In this document: positions 4,017 through 64,000 of the stretch, piece by piece
How the letters are laid out: the number at the start of each line of letters is the position of its first letter
Numbering within the stretch: the stretch's first letter is position 1
From: Thermodesulfobacteriota bacterium
Lineage (GTDB): Bacteria > Desulfobacterota > QYQD01
NCBI GenBank assembly: GCA_031082315.1
Contig: JAVHLC010000011.1
Span: 35,117 to 99,116 of the forward strand
Length of the DNA: 64,000 nucleotides
Reading direction: 5' to 3'
Made by a program: the position numbers and the translations under genes
Notes under the pieces: generated by a model
Seen by the model: only the letters and a program-made list of their open reading frames with translations
The model's database searches: none
Told to the model about the DNA's origin: nothing

Positions 4017-4296
4017 ACCTTACTTAGCTCCCATCCAAAAACCATGCCCATCCCATTGTAGGAGCACCTTCCAGGTGCGAACAAATGCCCGTCGCAGCAG
4101 GATGCTGCTCCTACGGCGGCAGGCAGGCCTAATACGGCAAGGGGGATTTTGGGATTTCCGGATGAAAACCGCTTAATTTTCACTTTCCAAAATCTCTTTG
4201 TTCATGTCATAATCAACGGCGATGTCTTAAAGTTAATCTGAATAAGGGTCGAAAAGACTTAGGAGATCGTCTTTTGATGCACAAGGAGGCGCCTTT

Positions 4297-26416: not shown

Positions 26417-26918
26417 ACGTTCATGCAGAACGTGCTTGACGAATTGTGAATAAGCAGGACATCCGCTTGGGGCGGACGGCAGTTACTCTATCTCCCGAAC
26501 CCCGGGGCTTCGTCATGTTATGCTGACTTGCCCGGATAGTTGGCTTTGTACGCCATTTACTCGCCACGTCCTGTGGCTCGCCCTTCGGGCCAGCAAATCT
26601 GTTCAAAATTGTTTATCCTGACGATTTTGTCTGTTCCCCGGATCAAGTCCGGGGCAGGCTTGACTCATAGCTTTGCAGTCCGGGTTACCGCTCCCTGCGG
26701 TCGCTCTCGCCGTTGGCTCGTGGTCTCCGCTACGCTCTGGACCCTTCAGACGGTCTCTCACGATTCCGCCCTTGCCTTCGGCTAGTACTTCTGCTAACGT
26801 ATCACTAAGTAGGCAGGGTTCACCCTGTTAAATTCCCCCCAGGGAACCCTATTTAACAGGGTAAACGTACAGGGGGGACTTACACCCCATAAGCTCACGC
26901 CCATGCCGGGCGTACACA
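26417..26918 (+). repeat. Large structured ORF-free element, copy 1 (~500 nt); candidate ncRNA or IS200/IS605-derived non-autonomous element
   Basis: About 90% identical to 28216..28694. Starts with the hairpin ACGTTC-atgca-GAACGT and ends with ACGCCC-atgcc-GGGCGT. Contains a perfect 16-bp stem GTTCACCCTGTTAAAT/ATTTAACAGGGTGAAC and many smaller palindromes. Carries an extra 29-nt hairpin insert (ccccggatcaagtccgggg...). Confidence 0.8.
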
Positions 26919-26987
26919 ATTCGTTCAAGAGGGACGCGGCATAAGGCCGCCGCGCCCCTTAGCTTTGGAGTTCGGGCCTAAAAGAAA

Positions 26988-28215: not shown

Positions 28216-28694
28216 ACGTTCATGCAGAACGTGCTTGACGAATTGTGAATAAGCAGGACATCCTCTTGAGGCGGACGGCAGTTACTCTATCTCCCGAACC
28301 CCGGAGCTTCGTCACGTTGTGCTGACTTGCCCGGAGACTGGGCCTGGTATGCCGTTTACTCGCCACGTCCTGTGGCTCGCCCTTCGGGCCAGCAAAGCTG
28401 TTCAAGATCGTTCATCCTGACGATTTTGTCTGTTCGTCGGCTCATAGCTTTGCGCTCCGGGTTACCGCTCCCTACGGTCGCTCTCGCCGTTGGCTCGTGG
28501 TCTCCGCTGCGCTTCGAACCCTTCGACGGTCTCTCACGATTCCGCCCTTGCCTTCGGCTGGTACTTCTGCTAACGTATCACTAACTAGGCAGGGTTCACC
28601 CTGTTAAATTCCCCCCAGGGAACCCTATTTAACAGGGTGAACGTACAGGGGGGACTTACACCCCTTAAGCTCACGCCCATGCCGGGCGTACACA
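28216..28694 (+). repeat. Large structured ORF-free element, copy 2 (~480 nt)
   Basis: See copy 1. Has the same terminal hairpins and the 16-bp stem but lacks the 29-nt insert. Confidence 0.8.
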
Positions 28695-28785
28695 ACTGCG
28701 TTCACGCGACCTCGTGACCTCGGCGCGTGACCCACATGTTATTATGCTTCTTGATAGTAAGAATTAAGAGGAGGGGAAATAGTAT

Positions 28786-35840: not shown

Positions 35841-36072
35841 AGGCCCTCCAGCATATCTTTTTTATTGTAACATTTAAGCACATTACCTGCCTTTTGACAA
35901 CTGCGATCCGGACTATCTAATAAGTATATCTATCCCTACCTATGCGATAAGAACCGGGGAAATTGACTTTATTCAACCTGTTGTGCTAATCTCCCGAAGA
36001 CTTTTACATTGGTCATTAGTCACCGGCCAATAACGAATAACTGGTTTCCATCCGAAAACCCCGGTTTTCTGG

Positions 36073-37488
36073 ATGGAGCGGGAAGGCTTTATAAAAATGC
36101 CGGCTTACGAGAGAACTAACTTTAAAAGCCTGCTGAAGGCCATAGCAAAGGGCGAGGTAGCGCCTGTTTATCTCCTGTGGGGTGAACGGTATCTCTACCA
36201 GTCGGCCTATGAAGAGCTTATTGCCGCCCTCCTTCCTGAAAAAAACCGCGGCACCAACCTCCGGGTGATAGACGGGGCTAATGAAGACGTCTATCGTCTG
36301 GTAGAGGAATTGCAGACCCTGCCCCTTTTCCCCGGGAGGCAGGTTTTTGTGGTAAAGGACACCCGTCTCTTTCATTCCAAAAGTACGGCCGACCCGCTTC
36401 TGGCTAAAAGCCGTGAGTACTTTATAAAAGGCGACCTTCAGGCGGCGGCTCGGAGCCTCGTGCAGGCCATTTCCTCATCCGGTCTGGCCATTGAGGATGT
36501 CAGGGACGGGGGATGGGAGAAGATACCGGATAGTACCTGGGAAAAGATATTCAGCGCCCCAAAGAGTGGGGAGGATATTAACTGGCTGAATGAAGTGACT
36601 AACTTCGCCATACAGGCCGGGCAGGAAGAATCGGCCCCCGCCGGAGGTGGAGGGGATATTCTGGAAGAGACCCTGGCCAAAGGCATACCGGCTTCCAACC
36701 ATCTGATCTTGCTTACAGATACTGTGGACAGACGCAAATCTCTCTACCGGCTGATAGAAAAGATGGGTGTGGTTGTGAGCTTCGCGGTCGATAAAGGAAT
36801 TACCGCCGCGGCAAAACGCAGTCAGGATACGGTGCTCAAGGACCTGATGAAGGATATACTCACACGCCATGGAAAGGCCATGGAGCCGCGCGCAGCATCC
36901 GATCTTATCGAAAGGATAGGTTTTAATCCGGCTTCCCTGGCCGCCGCATTAGAAAAACTGGTCAGTTACAGCGGTGAAAGAAAGACCATCACCCTGAAAG
37001 ATATTGACGCGGTAGTGAAACGGGAAAGGGAAGAGCCGATTTATGAACTGACCGGGGCATTCGGTGACCGGGATGCCGAGAAGGCCCTTTCTTCCCTGGG
37101 TCTGCTCCTTGACCAGGGTTATGTGCCGCTCCAGATACTGGCTGCCCTCATCAGACAGATTCGCCGCCTTCTCCTGGCCAGGTGGGCGTTGGATACGAGT
37201 CTGGATTTTTTGGGAAAAGGGGATGTCACGTATCAAGGCATTCAGCAGGGACTGCCGGGGCTTAAGAAAGAAGGAAAGATACCTAAGGAGCTGGAAAAAC
37301 TTTCACCGTACCCGCTTTTCTTGCTTTTAAAACAGGCCAGGGGGTTTCAAATTGAGCACCTTGTTCAGTGTATGTCCGAACTCCTTAGGGTCGATATGGC
37401 CCTCAAATCCGGCGGGGTAGCGCCTAAACTTTTGCTGGAAGACTTGATCCTGAAATGCCTGGTTTTTCATCCTGAGACTGCCGGTTGA
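36073..37488 (+). CDS. holA: DNA polymerase III delta subunit
   Basis: 471 aa with a HolA N-domain (VYLLWGERYLYQ...LFPGRQVFVV). The start could instead be the Met at 36097. Confidence 0.6.
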   Translation: MEREGFIKMPAYERTNFKSLLKAIAKGEVAPVYLLWGERYLYQSAYEELIAALLPEKNRGTNLRVIDGANEDVYRLVEELQTLPLFPGRQVFVVKDTRLFHSKSTADPLLAKSREYFIKGDLQAAARSLVQAISSSGLAIEDVRDGGWEKIPDSTWEKIFSAPKSGEDINWLNEVTNFAIQAGQEESAPAGGGGDILEETLAKGIPASNHLILLTDTVDRRKSLYRLIEKMGVVVSFAVDKGITAAAKRSQDTVLKDLMKDILTRHGKAMEPRAASDLIERIGFNPASLAAALEKLVSYSGERKTITLKDIDAVVKREREEPIYELTGAFGDRDAEKALSSLGLLLDQGYVPLQILAALIRQIRRLLLARWALDTSLDFLGKGDVTYQGIQQGLPGLKKEGKIPKELEKLSPYPLFLLLKQARGFQIEHLVQCMSELLRVDMALKSGGVAPKLLLEDLILKCLVFHPETAG

Positions 37489-38464: not shown

Positions 38465-39091
38465 TTAATGTTTTTTTTGACCGAGCAGGCGCAGGGCCTG
38501 TGAAGAAATAGTCTTCAGGACATCCTTGCTCTTGGCTATATCTCGCAAATCTGCCTCGCGCAGGAGCGGCAGCAACCTTATGGCCAGCATAAGCGGCGTC
38601 TTCGGGTTCTTAACCAGCTCTACCTTAACCGGATAGACCTTCAGCCACTTGCGTTCAGTGGCCAGATGCCGGATAACGCCTTCGTCCATAGTGCGCATCT
38701 TGGCTATCTGGACTGCCTCGGCATCGGTAAGACGCGCATTCTGTACCACGGCTCCCTGGACCATCTTGTTCCCGTCGCGGATGAGGATGCCCCGGGACTC
38801 TTTGTCGCCGGTCATGGCCAGCTTGATCTTTTCGGCGACGTTCATCCGGGCTATCTTCTGGGATAGGGACTGGCTTTCTTTATCCGGTTCTTCGTTGGTC
38901 AATACCAAAATTCCCCGTAATCGTTCACCGTTGACCGTAAGAACCTGAAAAGCGTCTTTTTGGCAAAGAGTCACGGTGATCGCGTATTCCGTTTCGGCCT
39001 CCAGTCCCTGGTCCAAAAGACCAGGAACCAGAGTACAAGAGCCAAATATCCCCTGAAAAGCGCAAGGAACGTCTTTTCGGTGAACGGTCAA
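38465..39091 (-). CDS. Hypothetical protein downstream of the EF-G paralog; the N-terminus is uncertain
   Basis: 208 aa ORF that starts on a TTG inside the tandem GTGAACGGT repeat. The Met at 38848 (MNVAEK...) is a more plausible start. Confidence 0.35.
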   Translation of the reverse strand: MTVHRKDVPCAFQGIFGSCTLVPGLLDQGLEAETEYAITVTLCQKDAFQVLTVNGERLRGILVLTNEEPDKESQSLSQKIARMNVAEKIKLAMTGDKESRGILIRDGNKMVQGAVVQNARLTDAEAVQIAKMRTMDEGVIRHLATERKWLKVYPVKVELVKNPKTPLMLAIRLLPLLREADLRDIAKSKDVLKTISSQALRLLGQKKH

Positions 39092-39112
39092 CAGTGAACG
39101 GTGGACGGTTAC
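39079..39112. repeat. D repeat copy 1: tandem GTGAACGGT units
   Basis: ggtgaacggtcaacagtgaacggtggacggttac is related to the 51192..51287 palindromic AACGGT/ACCGTT arrays. Confidence 0.6.
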
Positions 39113-41227: not shown

Positions 41228-41375
41228 AACTGAACATGCATAGCGAGCGCATTCCCCGCTGCTTGCCATCCAGGTCCGACCCTGGCGGGCGGCGGGGTTA
41301 GCGAGCGAATACTATGCTTTTTACCTTACATACGGAGATTCCCTGTCCGCCGCAGGCGAACTGCGGGGAGCTTCA
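41228..41375. repeat. A-family hairpin repeat, copy A3 (long form) in the EF-G paralog 5' region
   Basis: Same core as A1, including the nested ~70-bp insert flanked by agcgagcg direct repeats. The apical palindrome is ccgcag-gcgaa-ctgcgg. Confidence 0.8.
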
Positions 41376-41555
41376 ATCTTTATTCACAAGTTTTTGCAAA
41401 ATATCGACTTAAAATTTTAAAGTCAAGCCTTAATTGTAATAGTTCACCGCAGAGTGCGCAGAGAACGCCTCTGCCTGCCCGCCTTGCCTTGGATGCTTGA
41501 GTCCGGTGATTAAGGTTTTTCTTTTTTGTGTCGATATAGTTGGCGTAGCTTGTTG

Positions 41556-41720
41556 CCATCCGGCCACGGGCCGAAAGCCCCGGTTTTCCGGATGGAACGG
41601 TCAGCAGTCGGCTATCAGCGTTCAGCTTAAGATGATGTTGTTTGTCTTATTTTTTTGCTGACGGCTGAAAGCTGATCGCTGAGGGCTTTCATCCGGAAAC
41701 GGTAGTTTCCGGATGAAAAC
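41556..41720. repeat. B-family MITE-like element, copy B1, upstream of pilT
   Basis: The internal layout matches B2 and B3 (ggatggaRcggtcagcaStcRgctatcagcRttcagcttaa ... tttgctgaSRgctgaNRgctgaaagc ... ccggaaacggtagtttccggatgaaaac). It ends in a TTCCGGAA-type palindrome. Confidence 0.7.
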
Positions 41721-41746
41721 TAACTCAAGCGGAGGATTGGCTAAAG

Positions 41747-44020: not shown

Positions 44021-44644
44021 ATGGAAATCTCATGCCCTGGATGTCAGAAGCGCTTTCTTGTTCCGGATGAAAAGTTACCGGCGAACACCAAAGTCGTCCT
44101 TACCTGCCCGGATTGCAAAGGTAAGATTCCTATAGATACGAGGGGAAAAAGTGAAGAGCCCGGCCCTTTGCCGGATACCGATCAGGATGTCGCCATTGAA
44201 TTCTTCGAAGAAGGGACGAAGACAGGGCTGGTTTGTGTGCCGGATGAGTCTATGAAGGAGGGCGTTGTTCGTGTCCTGGAGGAGTTTGACTACAAAACGA
44301 GTGCGGCCGATGACCTGCGGACCTTTTATGCCAAGGTACGTTATAATCATTATGGCGTGATAGTCGTAAGTGAAAAATCCGCGGAAGGAGGGACGGGAAA
44401 CAATCCCATTTTAAGGTATCTGGAGCGCCTGCCTATATCTGTACGGCGCAATATCTTTTTATTTCTCATTTCCGCTCAGCACAGGACACTGGATACGTTA
44501 ATGGCCTTCTCCCTCTCTGTAGATGCCATTATCAATGAAAAGGACCTGGGCGAAATGCGGGAGATTTTGCAAAAGTCGCTGTCCCAGCATGAGCATTTCT
44601 ACAAGGTATTTAAGGATTGCCTGAGGGCTGAAGGCCGGATTTAA
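44021..44644 (+). CDS. MJ0042-type zinc-ribbon domain protein, hypothetical
   Basis: 207 aa. The N-terminus has CPGCQKRF...CPDCKG. Confidence 0.4.
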   Translation: MEISCPGCQKRFLVPDEKLPANTKVVLTCPDCKGKIPIDTRGKSEEPGPLPDTDQDVAIEFFEEGTKTGLVCVPDESMKEGVVRVLEEFDYKTSAADDLRTFYAKVRYNHYGVIVVSEKSAEGGTGNNPILRYLERLPISVRRNIFLFLISAQHRTLDTLMAFSLSVDAIINEKDLGEMREILQKSLSQHEHFYKVFKDCLRAEGRI

Positions 44645-47480: not shown

Positions 47481-48356
47481 TGGAATATTTAAGGGGCTGG
47501 GAGGGTCTCCCTCTAAAACTATACGCTTTTGACGGCGGGTAGGGTCAGGAGAAGGGGCGGCCGCCAAGAGGGCCTCGGTATAGGGGTGGTGGGGTACCTG
47601 TCCGAGGAGATTTTTGTCTATTATTTCCACGATCTTTCCGAGATACATGACGGCGATGCGGGTGCTCAGATAATGTACGACCTGAAGGTCATGGGCGATA
47701 AAGAGATAGGTAAGGTTGAATTTGTTCTTGAGGTCGAGAAGGAGATTGATTACCTGGGCCTGTATCGAGACGTCCAGGGAAGAGACCGCTTCGTCCGCCA
47801 CGATGAATTCCGGATTCAGGGCTAAGGCGCGGGCGATACCGATCCTCTGCCTTTGTCCGCCGCTGAATTCATGCGGATAACGATATATCTGATCTTCACC
47901 AATACCTACTTCCCTAAGTATATGGGTAACTTTTTCGACCAGTTCTGTCCTGCCGGGGCAGAGCTTATGGATTATGAACGGTTCGGCCACAATATCGAAT
48001 ATGTTTCGGCGTGGATTAAGCGACGAGTAGGGATCCTGGAATATGATCTGCATATCCCTGCGCAAATTCCGCATCTGTCTATGGGATAGCGATGTGATAT
48101 CCCGGCCTTTATAAAAGACCTGGCCTGAGGCAGGTTCCTCCAGTTTCAGTATGAGGCGGCCTAATGTGGATTTGCCGCAGCCGCTTTCACCCACCAACCC
48201 TAATATCTCGCCCGGCATGATGGTAAGGTTAACGCCGGCCACGGCCTGTAAGACGTGGTCTTTCCCGCCCCAGAAGCTGCTCCGCACCTGATAATGTTTA
48301 AATAGGTCTTTGACTTCAACCACTGGGTTCATGGCCGGTCTGCCTTTAAAAAGCAC
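47367..48356 (-). CDS. Oligopeptide/dipeptide ABC transporter ATP-binding protein (OppF/DppF type)
   Basis: 329 aa. Has Walker [10 protein letters not shown], the signature LSGGQRQR, Walker B, and the C-terminal oligopeptide-ABC extension. Confidence 0.8.
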
Positions 48357-49318
48357 CGCACGAAGTGTCCTTTTTCTACCTCAAGAAGTTGTGGTTCGGT
48401 GCTGAGACATTCTTTATGCGCTTCTTTACAGCGGTTCTGAAAGGTGCAGCCTCCGGGCAGGGCGGAAAGCGAGGGGACCGTGCCGGGTATGGGCGTAAGG
48501 CGGCGTAAGGGTTCTTTATTCAATGAAATGTGCGGCAGGGAGGCCAGGAGCCCCCTGGTATAGGGATGGAGCGGCCGGGAAAAGAGGTTATCGACACCGG
48601 CCTCTTCAACTATGCGTCCGGCGTACATGACGATAACCCTTTGGCCTACCTCGGCCACCACGCCGAGATTGTGGGTAATCAAAAGGAGGGCCATGCCGGT
48701 TTTCTTTTTGATCTCGGCGAGCAGATCCAGTATCTGGGCCTGGATGGTGACGTCCAGGGCCGTGGTCGGTTCATCGGCAATTATGAGGTCCGGCCGGCAG
48801 GCCAGGGCCATGGCGATCATAACCCTTTGTCTTAGTCCGCCGCTCAGTTGGTGGGGGTAATGCCTTATCCGTTCGGCAGGGGAGGGGACGCCGACCAGGC
48901 CGAGGAGTTCAACGGCTTTTTGTTCGGCCTGATGACGCGTCATCTTTTCATGTACGAGTATGGTCTCTGTGATCTGGTCGCCTATGGTGAAGACCGGATT
49001 GAGCGCGGTCATCGGCTCCTGAAAGACCATGGAAATCCGCCGGCCCCGGAGGCGGCGCAGGTCTTTCTCTTCCAGTTTCATAATATCCCGGCCGTCGAAC
49101 AGGATTGAACCGGAGACTATCCTGCCGGGAGGGTCCGGGATGAGCCTCAATATGGACAGGGCCGTGACGCTCTTACCACAGCCGGACTCACCTACGACGC
49201 AGACAGTTTCGCCCTTTTCCACAGTGAAGCTTACGCCATCAACCGCCTTTAAGGTGCCTTCTTCGGTGTAAAAATATGTCTTTAAGTCCTGGACGGAAAG
49301 TAGTGGCTGGGGTGTCAT
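48329..49318 (-). CDS. Oligopeptide/dipeptide ABC transporter ATP-binding protein (OppD/DppD type)
   Basis: 329 aa. Has Walker [10 protein letters not shown] and the signature LSGGLRQR. Confidence 0.8.
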
Positions 49319-49524
49319 GCGTGGTACTCATTCGAAAAAAAACAACCGTTTCCGGCTGGGAGTTCTCCGCAATCAGCAAGTAGCTGTTGGAGATAGAATC
49401 CAGAATTCAGGAGTCAGAATACAAAAGAGCTGAAAGCTGAGCGCTGATGGCTGACTGCCGACTAGATTATAATAAAACAAAGATTGTTTCAAGGGAATGT
49501 TTGCCGTATAATACGTCTCTGGAT

Positions 49525-56114: not shown

Positions 56115-56545
56115 AGATTGCCGGGGTCACATCTCCATATGTTATTACTGTTCCTACGTGTGTAGGGATGACCGCAAAACGATAAGTACATAAACTTGAT
56201 CAATTCGTAAAAAAGCCCTCTCACCGCTGAGCACGCAGAGCCCGCAGAGAAAACATGTAACCTATTCAATATGTTATCTCGGCGTTCTCGGCGGCCTCTG
56301 CGGTAATTTTGACTTTTTATAAAATCATCAAACTTGACAGGAACTGTTTTGGGGTACATTATTAGGGTGGTAATGAAATGGAGACGACATGGAAGATGTG
56401 CTGATTATAATACTGGTCATAGCCTTTTTTGTGGCGCTGTTTAAGTGGGTAGTGCCTCGCCTAAAGCCGCCAACCTCCTTCGGTTGTCCTACCTGAGCAA
56501 CCAAAAAACCTCACTCTGCGGGCCGCAGAAATAAGAAATGAATTG

Positions 56546-56694
56546 GTTTTCATCCGGAAAACCAAGTTTTCCGGATGGAGCAGTCAGCACTCAGCTATCA
56601 GCATTCAGCTTAACATAATGTTTGTCCTACTCTTTTGCTGACAGCTGATGGCTGAAAGCGTGAAGCCGGAAACAGTAGTTTCCGGATGAAAACT
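56546..56694. repeat. B-family MITE-like element, copy B2 (complete, with ~16-bp terminal inverted repeats)
   Basis: The left end GTTTTCATCCGGAAAAC and the reverse complement of the right end GTTTTCATCCGGAAAC match. The right TIR supplies the ATG at 56686 for the listed AOR ORF. Confidence 0.75.
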
Positions 56695-56730
56695 GGATTG
56701 ATTTTTAGCAGGGCAGGACGGGACGAAATG

Positions 56731-58509
56731 GCTGGTTATTGGAAGAAGCTTCTTAGGATAAATCTTACCAGTGGGAAAACCGAGACAGAAGAGATACCTG
56801 AGGAGATTATCACCAAATACCTTGGCGCCAAGGGTATCGGAGCCTACTACTTTATAAAAGGCCTTAAAAAGGGCATCGACCCCCTTTCTCCTGAAAACAG
56901 GATTGTCCTGGCTACAGGGCCTTTTCAGGGTACGGAAATTCTATCCAGTGGCCGTTTCGCGGTTATTACCAAGTCTCCCCTTACCGGCATATTTCTGGAT
57001 AGCTATAGCGGGGGGCTGTTTGGCCCCGGTCTCAAATACTGCGGTTTTGATCTGGCGATTATCGAAGGCAAAACAAAAAAGCCTGTATATATCTGCATAA
57101 CCAATGGGCGGGCCCAGATAAAGGATGCTGCGCATCTATGGGGAAGGACCACGGCTGAAACAGAAAAGATCATAAGGTCAGCGGAAGGCGAGGATACGAA
57201 GGTAGTTTCCATAGGCGTGGCCGGAGAAAACGGGGCGCTTTTCTCCTGTCTGATCAGTGACAGGCGCCGCGCCGCGGGCCGGGGGGGAGCAGGGGCGGTC
57301 TTTGGGGCGAAGAACCTTAAGGCCGTAGCGGTAAACGGTACGCTGGCTATCCCGGTTCATGATGCTAAAAAGATAAAGGAATTAAATCGAAGGGCTGTGC
57401 AGGCCGTGGCACAGAGGCGTAAAGATAACGCCGGCCTTTATCTTTACGGTACCTCATCAGTATTGGAATATTCCCACAGGAAAGACCGCTTACCGGTCCT
57501 CAATTTTCAAAAAGGTGAGTGGGAATACTATGAGGGACTGGATGGGGAGACCATCCATCGGGAGAATAAGGTTAAATTCAACCCCTGTTGTCCCTGTCCG
57601 ATTGCCTGTGGCGGTATTCTTACCTCTCAAGGTAAAGACCGGCCGGAGTATGAGACCCTGGCCATGCTGGGGGCAAACTGCGGCCTGAAAAGATATGAGA
57701 CCGTGATTAAGGCCAATGAGCTATGTGATCTTTACGGCCTGGATACGATTTCGACCGGCAATGTCATCGCCTTTGCCATGGAATGTTCGGAAAAAGGGAT
57801 AATAAAAGAAAAGATCAAGTTCGGCGATGAAACGAGGCTTTTGTCGTTGATTGAGGAGATTGCTTATCGCAGGGGCATAGGCGGGCAGTTGGGCTTGGGC
57901 GCCAAAAGATTAGCCGGGATGTGGGGACACGGTTCTCGTGATTTTGCCATGCATGTGAAAGGTCTTGAGATGCCGGCCTGGAATACACGGGGACAGTTAG
58001 GCCAGGGGCTGGCCTATATGACCGCTGATATCGGGGCCAGCCACTTACGCGATGGCCTTGCGGAGCATAGTCCACCTAATAAACCGGCCATGGAGGTTGT
58101 CAAGGAGCTGGTGGAGGCCCAAAACGAGACTACCGCCAGAGATAACTACATAATATGTGCTTTTGCCCTGTACACTGTCTCACACGAGATGTGCCTTGAT
58201 TATTTTAAGGCGGCAACGGGTTTGGGATTAAATAAAGAGAAGATTCAGGAGATAGGCAATCGGATATTCACCCTTATTCGAAGCGTTAATTGCGGGGAGG
58301 GGATAACGCGCAAGGACGATAGCCTCCCGGCCAGGGCCATGAATGAACCCCTGCCTTCTGGAGTGGCCAAAGGCTGTAAGGCGTTTGTTAGTGAGGAAGA
58401 TAAAGAGCAGTGTCTGAATAGATACTATGAACTGCGCGACTGGGACAATAATGGTATTCCCAAAAAGGAGACACTTGAGAAATTAGGGATAGAGAGACTG
58501 ACCCGGTGA
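56731..58509 (+). CDS. Tungsten-containing aldehyde:ferredoxin oxidoreductase family protein
   Basis: MAGYWKKLLRINL matches the AOR N-terminus (MYGNWGRFIRVNL in the P. furiosus AOR). Also has an AFV-like pterin-binding region and the Cys motifs. The listed ORF starts at 56686, inside the MITE. Confidence 0.75.
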   Translation, partial: AGYWKKLLRINLTSGKTETEEIPEEIITKYLGAKGIGAYYFIKGLKKGIDPLSPENRIVLATGPFQGTEILSSGRFAVITKSPLTGIFLDSYSGGLFGPGLKYCGFDLAIIEGKTKKPVYICITNGRAQIKDAAHLWGRTTAETEKIIRSAEGEDTKVVSIGVAGENGALFSCLISDRRRAAGRGGAGAVFGAKNLKAVAVNGTLAIPVHDAKKIKELNRRAVQAVAQRRKDNAGLYLYGTSSVLEYSHRKDRLPVLNFQKGEWEYYEGLDGETIHRENKVKFNPCCPCPIACGGILTSQGKDRPEYETLAMLGANCGLKRYETVIKANELCDLYGLDTISTGNVIAFAMECSEKGIIKEKIKFGDETRLLSLIEEIAYRRGIGGQLGLGAKRLAGMWGHGSRDFAMHVKGLEMPAWNTRGQLGQGLAYMTADIGASHLRDGLAEHSPPNKPAMEVVKELVEAQNETTARDNYIICAFALYTVSHEMCLDYFKAATGLGLNKEKIQEIGNRIFTLIRSVNCGEGITRKDDSLPARAMNEPLPSGVAKGCKAFVSEEDKEQCLNRYYELRDWDNNGIPKKETLEKLGIERLTR

Positions 58510-61588: not shown

Positions 61589-62173
61589 TCAATTTTCTAC
61601 AATTACATAGGGTGCTATTTCTTTTAGTTTCTTTTCCCCGATCCCCTCGACATTCATAAGATCAGCAATGTCTTTGTACGGTCCATTTTGTTCGCGGAAG
61701 ATAATGATGCGCCGGGCAAGTTGCGGCCCGATGCCGGGGATTAGTTCCAGATTCTGTTCCGTGGCCGTGTTTAAAGGCATTGATATGTCCAGGAGAAGGC
61801 GTTCGGGATTGGTCATGGGGATAATTTTAATCTCATTTGTCCCCTCCGGTTTAGGGGTAACCAGAAGCTTTGTACCGGTAGGCACTTTCTGTGACAGGAG
61901 GACAGGGGAGTGCGAGGGATTTCGTTTCAACCCGCCGGCCCTTTCAATTACTTCTTTGACTGATGGTTGTAAGTAGAAAGTGTAGAGGCCGGGGGATCGT
62001 ACTCCACCCATGACTCGGACGTATTTTAGACCCTGGGTGGGAAATGACTCTGTAGGTGAGGCTGACCCGGGAGTTCTGCCATAAGAGAGGTAAAGACAGA
62101 CACCGAGCAGGACGACGGCTAGTAAGAGGACGGCCTGTTGCTCGTATCTGGTCATGATTATTGGGGGTTTCAT
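61589..62173 (-). CDS. comEA: ComEA-family competence protein (tandem helix-hairpin-helix DNA-binding domains)
   Basis: 194 aa with an N-terminal TM segment. The C-terminal LNTATEQNLELIPGIGPQLARRII...IADLMNVEGIGEKKL is an HhH repeat pair. Confidence 0.65.
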   Translation of the reverse strand: MKPPIIMTRYEQQAVLLLAVVLLGVCLYLSYGRTPGSASPTESFPTQGLKYVRVMGGVRSPGLYTFYLQPSVKEVIERAGGLKRNPSHSPVLLSQKVPTGTKLLVTPKPEGTNEIKIIPMTNPERLLLDISMPLNTATEQNLELIPGIGPQLARRIIIFREQNGPYKDIADLMNVEGIGEKKLKEIAPYVIVEN

Positions 62174-62300
62174 TATATGGCGGTCAGCTATCAGCGCTCA
62201 GCGTTCAGCTTAAGATGCTGGTTGTCTTGATTTTTTGCTGAGAGCTGACGGCTGATGGCTGAAAGCGTGAATCCGGAAACGGTAGTTTCCGGATGAACAC
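62165..62300. repeat. B-family MITE-like element, copy B3 (left TIR degraded), between cimA and comEA
   Basis: ggcggtcagctatcagcgctcagcgttcagcttaa...gctgatggctgaaagcgtgaatccggaaacggtagtttccggatgaacac. The comEA ATG falls in the remnant GTTTCAT of the left TIR. Confidence 0.65.
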
Positions 62301-62303
62301 TAA

Positions 62304-63893
62304 TTAATTTAACCCCTTTTTCTTTTTGCTGTCTTTAAGGAGCTTATAATTAATGCCATCCACGAGGGCCTGCCAACTGGCCTCGATGATGTCTGTGGAA
62401 ACGCCCACCGTGCCCCAGGTATCTTCCCTGTCGCTGCTTTCGATAAGCACTCTCACCCGGGCGCCGGTGCCGGTCTTATCAGGGATGACGCGTACCTTAT
62501 AGTCATCGAGGTGAATTTCCTTGAGTTCCGGATAAAACTTTTCCAGGGCCTTACGGATGGCATTGTCCAGGGCGTTTACCGGCCCATTGCCGATGGCGGC
62601 CGTATGCTCGACCTTCCCGCCGACTCCAAGCATGATGGTTGCTTCCGCCTGCGCCTCATCGTCTTCTTTTGATTTCTGGTCAATGACTCGGAACCCAAGA
62701 AGATCGAAATATTTTTTCTGCGTACCGAGGGCCCTTTGCATCAAGAGTTCAAAGGAGGCCTCGGCTCCTTCAAACTGATATCCCTGATTTTCCAGTTCCT
62801 TGAGTTGCTTCAATATCTCCAGTACAACCGGATCACGACTTTCGAGGTCCAGGCCGTACCGCATAGCCTTATGGAGGATATTGCTCTTTCCGGAGAGGTC
62901 GGATATAAGTATCCGCTGTATATTTCCCACCTTTTCCGGACGGATGTGTTCATAGGTCTCCGGATTTCTCTGCACGGCGCTTACGTGGATGCCTCCCTTG
63001 TGAGCAAAGGCGCTGGCCCCTACATAGGGTTGATATTTGTTGTGGGGCAGGTTGGCAATTTCCGTTATAAACCGCGATATCTCACTGAGCCTGGTGAGCT
63101 GCTCATCTGTGATGCATGGTATCTTCATTTTCAGCATCAGGGTGGGAACGATCGTACACAGGTTGGCGTTCCCGCAGCGTTCACCATAGCCGTTCATCGT
63201 CCCCTGTACCTGAGAAGCCCCCAGCTCCGCGGCAACCAGGGAATTAGCCACCGCCAATCCGCTATCGTTGTGGGTATGAATGCCAAAGGAGACATTTTTA
63301 AATTCTTTTTTTACTTTATTAATGATCTTGGCCACTTCCTGGGGCAGCGTCCCGCCATTGGTATCACAGAGGACAAGGCAGTCCACACCGGCAGAGACGG
63401 CCTGCCTCAGCGTGGCCAGGGCATAATCCGGCTGGGCCTTAAATCCGTCAAAGAAATGTTCGGCATCGTAAAAAAGCTTCTTCACATGGGGACGGAGATA
63501 AGCCACGGAGTCACGGATTATCTCCAGGTTGCGCTCCAGGCTGATACGGAGGGCATCACGGACGTGGACATCCCAGGTCTTGCCAAAGATAGTAATAACC
63601 TCTGTCTGTGCCTCTACAAGGGCGCGCAGGTTAACATCTTGTTCCGGTGTGTTACGCGGATTATGGGTGCTGCCAAAGGCCGTAATCCTGGCCGAGGAAA
63701 GGGCGTAATTTCTTATTTCCTTAAAGAACTGTACGTCCTTGGGGTTTGACCCGGGCCACCCACCCTCGATATAGTGGATACCTAATTCATCGAGCTTTAG
63801 AGAAATCCGTACCTTGTCTTCGACCGAAACGTTAAAATCTTCGGCCTGGGTGCCGTCTCTTAATGTAGTATCATAGATTTCCATACGTCGCAT
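62304..63893 (-). CDS. cimA: (R)-citramalate synthase (LeuA-family, Geobacter/Methanococcus type)
   Basis: 529 aa. Shows block-by-block similarity to the Geobacter CimA I recall ([48 protein letters not shown]..., plus the C-terminal LeuA dimerisation/regulatory domain). Confidence 0.7.
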
Positions 63894-64000
63894 TCTTGAT
63901 ACCTCTTAAAAATTCGAATTTCGAAATTCGAATCAGTTTAGCTGGTTGAAAAAGTATTCTTAAATCCCTCCCAACCTCCCTTTTTCAAAGGGAGGAGAAA

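Follow-up and report, generated by a model that had tools for sequence, protein, structure and literature searches.

A family of short palindromic intergenic elements, very probably MITEs, in uncultured Thermodesulfobacteriota

The Correia elements of Neisseria (CREE/NEMIS) have a TA duplication and 26-bp repeats that contain promoter and IHF motifs. RUP of Streptococcus pneumoniae, an element of the IS630 type that also has a TA duplication, probably depends on an IS acting in trans for its mobility, and BOX, from the same species, is without terminal inverted repeats or duplications. We describe here a family of elements, called B, that is present in a 64,000-nucleotide stretch of DNA from a Thermodesulfobacteriota bacterium (the window). 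The copy B2 and those related to it very probably make up a single family of non-autonomous DNA transposons (MITEs), which is defined by its terminal repeats. They are small (140-170 bp, where MITEs are under about 500 bp) and non-coding, have conserved inverted ends and a duplication of fixed length (4 bp), and occur as dispersed copies that are present in some genomes and absent from others, and these are among the features by which MITEs are recognised.

A preliminary description of this DNA had B2 as a MITE-like element with inverted terminal repeats and a heptad interior, and the sequence bears this out. Positions 56546-56562 read GTTTTCATCCGGAAAAC, and the reverse complement of 56678-56693, GTTTTCATCCGGAAAC, is a near-perfect inverted copy; the family consensus sets the bounds one base wider on each side, at 56545-56694, where B2 has GGT...ACT and the consensus AGT...ACT. 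Inside, TCAGCNN and GCTGANN heptads on either side of an AT-rich loop form an inverted repeat that is imperfect. At the left end the outer repeat is followed by its own inverted copy (CATCCGGAAAAC-caa-GTTTTCCGGATG), and the right end is built in the same way (CCGGAAAC-agta-GTTTCCGG), the inverted copy standing 3-4 nt from the outer repeat in both cases; each end is thus a hairpin, and B2 as a whole is a nested palindrome. The folding energies of its two strands are -64.6 and -72.3 kcal/mol (z = -6.8 and -8.5 against shuffled sequence). The 4-mers that flank B2 (AATT and GGAT) agree at one position of the four, so its target duplication has decayed.

Words taken from B2 recur in the window. A 25-mer of its right hairpin has three sites with four strand matches, the fourth arising from the palindromic hairpin of B1, which matches on both strands, and a 32-mer of its left arm occurs three times; 0.00 occurrences are expected for each in shuffled sequence, and both words land exactly on the sites of B1, B2 and B3. 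With 0.00 expected against three to four matches in the window, and with at least 146 homologous matches in other genomes (below), a chance palindrome or simple-sequence artefact, for which only the repetitiveness of the heptads speaks, was discarded.

Alignment also upholds the relation of B1 and B3 to B2, since the interior and the right end are common to all three. The left ends of B1 and B3 had been called degraded; this is correct for B3, whose left hairpin has collapsed, but B1 has kept the CCATCCGG...CCGGATGG stem around a loop that was replaced or inserted into. The right edge of B1 is 26 nt upstream of the pilT ATG (41747), and B3 lies between comEA and the stop codon of cimA (62304-62306). 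That stop codon (TAA, minus strand) falls in an AATTAA target, the right end of B3 being 3 nt away; cimA appears to end in codons different from those in the relative L130, and insertion of B3 may have reshaped the C-terminus of the protein. The window holds a degenerate fourth copy, B4, in which the left hairpin is absent and the right one eroded, directly upstream of an ABC ATPase gene (48329-49318, minus strand). Two solo hairpins had been reported besides, of which one is a true left-end fragment, matching the left end of full copies such as that in L095, while the other is only half an end and is either a remnant or a chance match. A further match, at 44060, lies inside an ORF and was set aside as chance. 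With B2 lacking a duplication, the left hairpin of B1 modified and both B3 and B4 truncated, the copies in the window are old relics.

Table 1. Positions of B-family copies, their parts and two gene starts in the window, and sequences of two filled and empty insertion sites in other genomes
Feature	Position	Strand	Remarks
B1	41547-41721 (start approximate)	+	nhmmer 130 bits; both terminal hairpins; left loop altered/expanded
B2	56545-56694	+	150 bp; the window's sole full-length copy; nhmmer 138 bits, HMM positions 3-167
B2 left terminal hairpin	56545-56578	+	
B2 outer left terminal repeat	56545-56562	+	GGTTTTCATCCGGAAAAC; family consensus AGTKTYCATCCGGAAAC
B2 left heptad arm	56579-56609	+	
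B2 AT-rich loop	56610-56636	+	
B2 right arm	56637-56662	+	
B2 right terminal hairpin	56663-56694	+	
B2 outer right terminal repeat	56678-56694	-	AGTTTTCATCCGGAAAC on the minus strand; holds ATG 56686-56688
B3	62167-62301	+	nhmmer 119 bits, HMM positions 29-168; left hairpin collapsed, right half intact
B4, degenerate fourth copy	49322-49458	-	nhmmer 52 bits, E = 7e-15, HMM positions 42-164
Solo left-end hairpin fragment	36043-36081	+	GGTTTCCATCCGAAAACCCCGGTTTTCTGGATGGAGCGG; ends just inside the left arm
Isolated 16-nt terminal-repeat match	4155-4170	-	GGTTTTCATCCGGAAA; half end only
AOR gene from true start	56728-58509	+	begins 33 nt past the end of B2
comEA from conserved ancestral start	61589-62155	-	188 aa
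Filled site, L086			GGGTT-AAAT-[133 bp]-AAAT-ACAT
Empty site, L011 (pair of L086)			GGGTT-GAAT-AAAG
Filled site, L066			TATG-AGGT-[154 bp]-AGGT-ATGCG
Empty site, L100 (pair of L066)			ATCT-GGGT-ATGTG

A genome-wide census of the terminal repeat, by which the preliminary description had proposed to judge its MITE reading, was made by scanning species-representative genomes with the pattern CCGGAAACNNNNGTTTCCGGATG, which gave at least 120 loci. Among the loci listed, 112 are from Thermodesulfobacteriota-type MAGs, all of them in genomes with family matches, and 8 are from unrelated taxa, with no family match and in a number close to chance expectation. Iterated nhmmer searches of the 0.8 Mb of loci found at least 146 non-overlapping family matches (E down to 1e-47) in at least 17 Thermodesulfobacteriota MAGs, among them MAG273, GMC6.concoct.48_sub, binchicken_co181_551, HyVt-111, SpSt-1152, Yes70-07, PowLak16_MAG11 and MAG151; MAG273 has at least 35 in 187 kb. 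Among the matches listed, 53 of 146 are full-length copies of 140-222 bp and 138 of 146 are intergenic, and the copies are non-coding, the ORFs that overlap them being only extensions of neighbouring genes. The family ends, AGTKTYCATCCGGAAAC...GTTTCCGGATGAACACT, form a 16-17-bp terminal inverted repeat that is conserved both in the alignment and in end profiles, and the consensus is one long palindrome with the ends AGTGTTCATCCGGAAAC ... GTTTCCGGATGAACACT. In the B type, the end repeat and its inverted copy make a 38-bp hairpin at each end, and the TCAGCNN arms pair across the AT-rich loop. A distant-mode search of the PLSDB plasmids gave no family match, the IMG/VR viral contigs held no exact match to the hairpin pattern, and a literature search on MITEs in Desulfobulb* and sulfate reducers found nothing relevant; as far as can be told, the family is new and undescribed.

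Target-site duplication was measured on the 44 copies for which both ends could be placed, by comparison of the 4 nt outside AGT...ACT on each side. The two 4-mers are identical in 12 of these copies (27%) and agree at three or more positions in 21, compared with 4.8% identical in a cross-copy control in which the left and right flanks were taken from different copies (binomial p = 7e-7). The perfect non-palindromic duplications (TCTT, ATCT, ATTT three times, AGGT and AAAT) are direct and not inverted, and so are not an extension of the inverted repeat; the palindromic ATAT and AATT are uninformative on this point. The target profile is (Y)T-AWWT-A(R), with A at position 1 of the duplication in 66-81% and T at position 4 in 78-83%. 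In addition, empty sites were found for two copies in other species (Table 1), with flanks 84-93% identical between the species and a single copy of the 4-mer in each. These filled and empty pairs show the AG...CT beside the 4-mer to be element sequence and not a piece of an 8-bp duplication. A TA or an 8-bp duplication was accordingly rejected, as the variable 4-mer is direct and the adjoining AG/CT is unmatched in the empty sites.

The same ends also surround other cores. Elements of 113-118 bp with a G-run hairpin core carry them and are flanked by AAGT/AAGT in L088 and AACT/AACT in L103; these two have a single repeat per end and no terminal hairpin, yet they have 4-bp duplications. An element of 118 bp in L040 has yet another core between the same end repeats, and in one B subfamily the loop is replaced by an ACCGTT/AACGGT module. 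The presence of several cores within one pair of ends points to a transposase that is active now or was so recently. The MITE reading thus has behind it the census, the 4-bp duplications, the empty sites and the recurrence of one 16-17-bp pair of ends around unrelated cores. There are also nine stand-alone 38-bp hairpins with perfect 4-bp duplications. Copies at non-orthologous sites have a mean identity of 92% (up to about 97%) in HyVt-111 and 81% in MAG273, so that amplification was more recent in some lineages than in that of the window. Decay can be followed at one orthologous site, where three genomes carry versions of 206, 138 and 84 bp. The ACCGTT/AACGGT module is itself an 85-nt hairpin (L013 1533-1617 and other loci), and a 21-nt piece of it is found in the window at 39083-39103, just downstream of the EF-G gene. 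At L112 2240-2600 an element of about 200 bp with ends of its own (GTACTGCGTCCCGAAAG...) is nested in the loop of a B element at a CTAG site; it represents another MITE family in the same genomes.

Exact look-ups of the window's own AOR and PilT gave no record, and loci of relatives were reached for comparison through AOR and PilT homologues, the latter of which put the organism near Desulfobulbales-type bacteria. Contig 13 of MAG273 has 91-97% identity to the window and carries B2 and B3 at the same sites. The B2 orthologue there (L101 5870-6034), its site orthology established by the flanks, has a BLAST identity of 94% over 159 columns that include one 7-base gap, or 98.7% with gapped columns ignored, and B3 is 99% identical to its same-site copy (L065). 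B1 is found in contigs whose PilT is 99% identical (L122 225-403, and L121, which has an assembly gap over it) and is missing in relatives with 96% and 90% PilT identity, whose EF-G/pilT spacers measure 352 and 245 bp, compared with 534 bp where B1 is present. B3 is likewise missing in L130, L131 and L132, where the cimA-comEA spacer is just 19-29 nt long and contains no family match. Finally, in a relative with 95% AOR identity (L127-L129) and one with 88% (L130), the slot of B2 has kept its flanks (...GAAATGAAKT and GGATTGATTTT...) around other inserts, 187-188 bp in length. B2 is therefore clearly lineage-specific, being common to the window and MAG273 and absent from more distant relatives. 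No clean empty site was found for B1 or B2, as the relatives examined have unrelated sequence in the same slots.

Several other repeats came to light at these loci. The inserts at L127 675-861 and L130 2280-2467 occupy the slot of window positions 56540-56700, and three related lineages thus differ in what fills the slot 33 nt upstream of the AOR start, each having an insert (150-188 bp) unrelated to the others; lying as they do between conserved flanks, these inserts make the site look like an insertion hot spot. The L127 insert, which fills exactly the slot of B2, belongs to another repeat family, that of the G-run (CCCCC...GGGGG) elements, and a 95%-identical piece stands at the end of the window (63924-64000, minus strand). 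Other copies of this family are at L088 174-288, L103 1326-1440 and L021 262-374, and these three have B-family end repeats and 4-bp duplications. The EF-G/pilT spacer that holds B1 has in addition a copy of a second repeat family of about 145 bp (window 41230-41377), which the window and L121 have and L124 and L126 lack, and which is found again in L019 and L085 (two copies each), L115, L106 and L058.

The ends of these elements contain ATG codons, and the preliminary description noted that one of them, at 56686, gives the listed AOR ORF a 15-codon N-terminal extension. Residue 15 of this long ORF (ATG 56728) aligns with residue 1 of the solved AORs 1aor, 9mqx and 9g7j, which include that of P. 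furiosus, and the closest homologues are 593-594 aa long. By this alignment and these lengths, the AOR start is ATG 56728, and the ATG inside the end repeat is a longest-ORF artefact. Similarly, B3 was said to supply the annotated ATG of comEA, and ATG 62173 does lie in the B3 remnant, within its collapsed left hairpin; however, relatives that lack B3 start at the equivalent of ATG 62155, which is conserved in them and gives their length of 188 aa. Judged from these relatives, the ancestral comEA start is ATG 62155, and use of ATG 62173 would add 6 spurious codons. Upstream of AOR is a 35-codon ORF (56389-56496, plus strand; MEDVLIIILVIAFFVALFKWVVPRLKPPTSFGCPT) whose conservation in the window extends to MAG273 and L127, with a promoter-like TTGACA-17-CATTAT (56334-56362) ahead of it and a GC hairpin (56514-56530) behind it. 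A short repeated segment (56163-56337), also upstream of this ORF, has matches in L119, L103, L013, L055, L088 and L083.

The position of these elements beside genes raises the idea that they are functional cis-regulatory elements: a structured RNA (in the 5' UTR, or a small RNA), or else a palindromic operator (CATCCGGAAAC-N4-GTTTCCGGATG) for a transcription factor with pilT, AOR and comEA among the genes that it controls. Each of the window's four copies has a start codon no more than about 35 nt away, B2 folds strongly on both strands (z-values above), promoter-like sites lie upstream of it, and there is some covariation in the hairpins. Across the family, however, the preference for gene starts is not above baseline, the ratio of start-adjacent to end-adjacent sides being 119:95 for the elements and 287:235 for intergenic regions. 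The flanking genes both run along the element in 10 cases, are both opposed to it in 10, diverge in 9 and converge in 4, so that element orientation and the mix of intergenic types equal the intergenic baseline, and folding energy favours one strand in 22 copies and the other in 19 (p = 0.93). A search of Rfam 15 at gathering scores gave no hit at any copy in the window, and in an E-value search the best match over B2 reached 15 bits with E >= 2. This lack of orientation bias, strand difference in folding and Rfam match leaves a regulatory RNA unsupported. A sigma-70 scan detected no promoter inside the elements and no outward-facing promoter, and a terminator scan found no T-tract after element ends. 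The suggestion that the elements are portable regulatory or termination hairpins thus finds no backing in orientation bias, strand asymmetry or T-tracts, and the transcription-factor palindrome that had been named as an alternative source of the shared ends is not supported, the insertions showing no preference for gene side or orientation. Against any cis-regulatory role there are also the target-site duplications, the unrelated character of the neighbouring genes and the absence of B1, B2 and B3 upstream of the same genes in close relatives, and we regard such a role as very improbable.

Rivals that concern the manner of movement turn largely on the terminal hairpins. Covariation was counted on a hand-specified structure, since indels in the heptad arms made the whole-element RNAalifold consensus poor. 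Within the terminal hairpins there are 27 double-change cells, compared with 10.2 in shuffles and with none of 500 shuffles reaching 27, a significance that is overstated, since the shuffles take no account of how the copies are related to one another; we treat it as a hint only. Six covarying pairs fall in the right terminal hairpin, and pairing of the outer left with the outer right repeat shows no excess of compensatory changes (93 of 500 shuffles). Plain sequence-specific binding of the repeats does not predict compensatory changes inside hairpins, and this counts against the MITE model. It speaks for a REP/REPIN-like arrangement, in which the 38-bp hairpin is a REP unit, the 160-bp element an inverted doublet, and movement is due to a Y1 (HUH) transposase of the RAYT type, with single-stranded hairpins as its recognition target. 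Several features are as this arrangement would have them: a pair of palindromic units in inverted orientation that together fold into one bigger hairpin, abundant solo hairpins, and compensatory changes that occur inside each hairpin and not between the ends. The CCGGATG/CATCCGG stem and the GTAG at the loop-stem junction recall E. coli REP, and we take them as a lead only. To our knowledge, however, transposition of the Y1/IS200 type makes no target duplication, and the copies here have copy-specific direct 4-bp duplications and two empty sites with a single 4-mer. Moreover, the G-run elements of L088 and L103 have such duplications without a terminal hairpin, and solo hairpins with duplications can be explained by internal deletion between direct repeats. 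A REPIN-like origin is, on this evidence, distinctly unlikely.

It is also conceivable, though unlikely, that the 38-bp hairpin (end repeat, 4-nt loop and inverted end repeat) is itself mobile and is recognised, folded or as a cruciform, by a transposase that makes a 4-bp staggered cut, the B type then being two 'nano-MITEs' around a heptad core. Such mobility would explain why compensatory changes are kept within hairpins and not between the ends, and it would explain the nine lone hairpins with perfect duplications. A conventional DDE transposase could hardly pair two repeats that stand 4 bp apart on one duplex, and mobile hairpins, if real, would represent an undescribed mode of end recognition.

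In the preferred reading, that of a conventional MITE, a DDE-type transposase would act in trans, binding the end repeats and integrating the element with a 4-bp staggered cut. The 38-bp solo hairpins with duplications may have arisen when the DNA between the direct CATCCGGAAAC repeats of the two element ends was deleted, much as solo LTRs form, with the original duplication kept. Effects on pilT, AOR, comEA and cimA would be incidental, namely spurious upstream ATGs and possibly a 5' UTR hairpin of about -65 kcal/mol. We searched for an autonomous partner in the window and in the 0.8 Mb of loci and found none: the end-repeat 16-mer outside known copies gave chance matches or nothing, and in the loci inverted 11-mers spaced 0.6-4 kb apart never had a plausible transposase ORF between them, nor did any genome show the same long repeat at two places. 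B-family elements are, in sum, ordinary selfish DNA, and nothing here alters the existing understanding of how MITEs work.

The family has practical consequences nonetheless. Its copies cause false N-terminal extensions (AOR and comEA) and false ORFs in annotation, and they break short-read MAG assemblies: in a near-identical MAG an N-run scaffold gap lies exactly over B1 (L121, about 2900-2975), and in many JAOZRP and DQWO contigs the assembly stops within a family copy. The copies explain much of the difference in intergenic length between close relatives, and the family, rich in copies and defined by the end repeats, marks a clade of uncultured Desulfobulbia-like bacteria. Elsewhere in the window is a repeat of about 500 bp in two copies that are 90% identical (26417-26927 and 28216-28704), the second of which contains the only Rfam gathering-score hit of the window (group-II-D1D4-3, 28276-28357, minus strand); these are probably copies or fragments of a group II intron.

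Among insertion sequences related to IS4, IS701 makes a duplication of exactly 4 bp and has the end signature ---YACT-Y--YR, and ISH3, which was known only from archaea in 2008, has the end signature CRGT and a duplication of 4-5 bp. Both were considered as candidate sources of the transposase, and the present family resembles them in its 4-bp duplication, which here has A first and T last (AWWT). Derivation of the MITE from either was rejected because its ends, AGTKTYCATCC, fit neither signature, and the agreement in duplication length is a lead only. REP/REPIN sequences resemble the family in their palindromic units of about 35-38 nt, inverted doublets, solo decay products and compensatory changes in stems, but differ from it in that target-site duplications, single-copy empty sites and transposing variants without terminal hairpins are found here. 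With RUP and BOX it shares the character of small, non-coding, modular, hairpin-forming intergenic repeats, whereas here one pair of end repeats bounds several cores and the duplications are of 4 bp. Like the Correia elements, its members are intergenic MITEs of 100-160 bp with inverted ends, a short duplication and many copies, which fold into long hairpins when transcribed and often lie just upstream of start codons. They differ from Correia elements in their 4-bp (AWWT) duplication, 16-17-bp repeat, doubled hairpin ends and heptad-repeat arms, as well as in having no outward-facing promoter that we could detect, no sequence similarity to them and a host of a different phylum. The family is nearest to the Correia and RUP elements in behaviour and also resembles REPINs in architecture.
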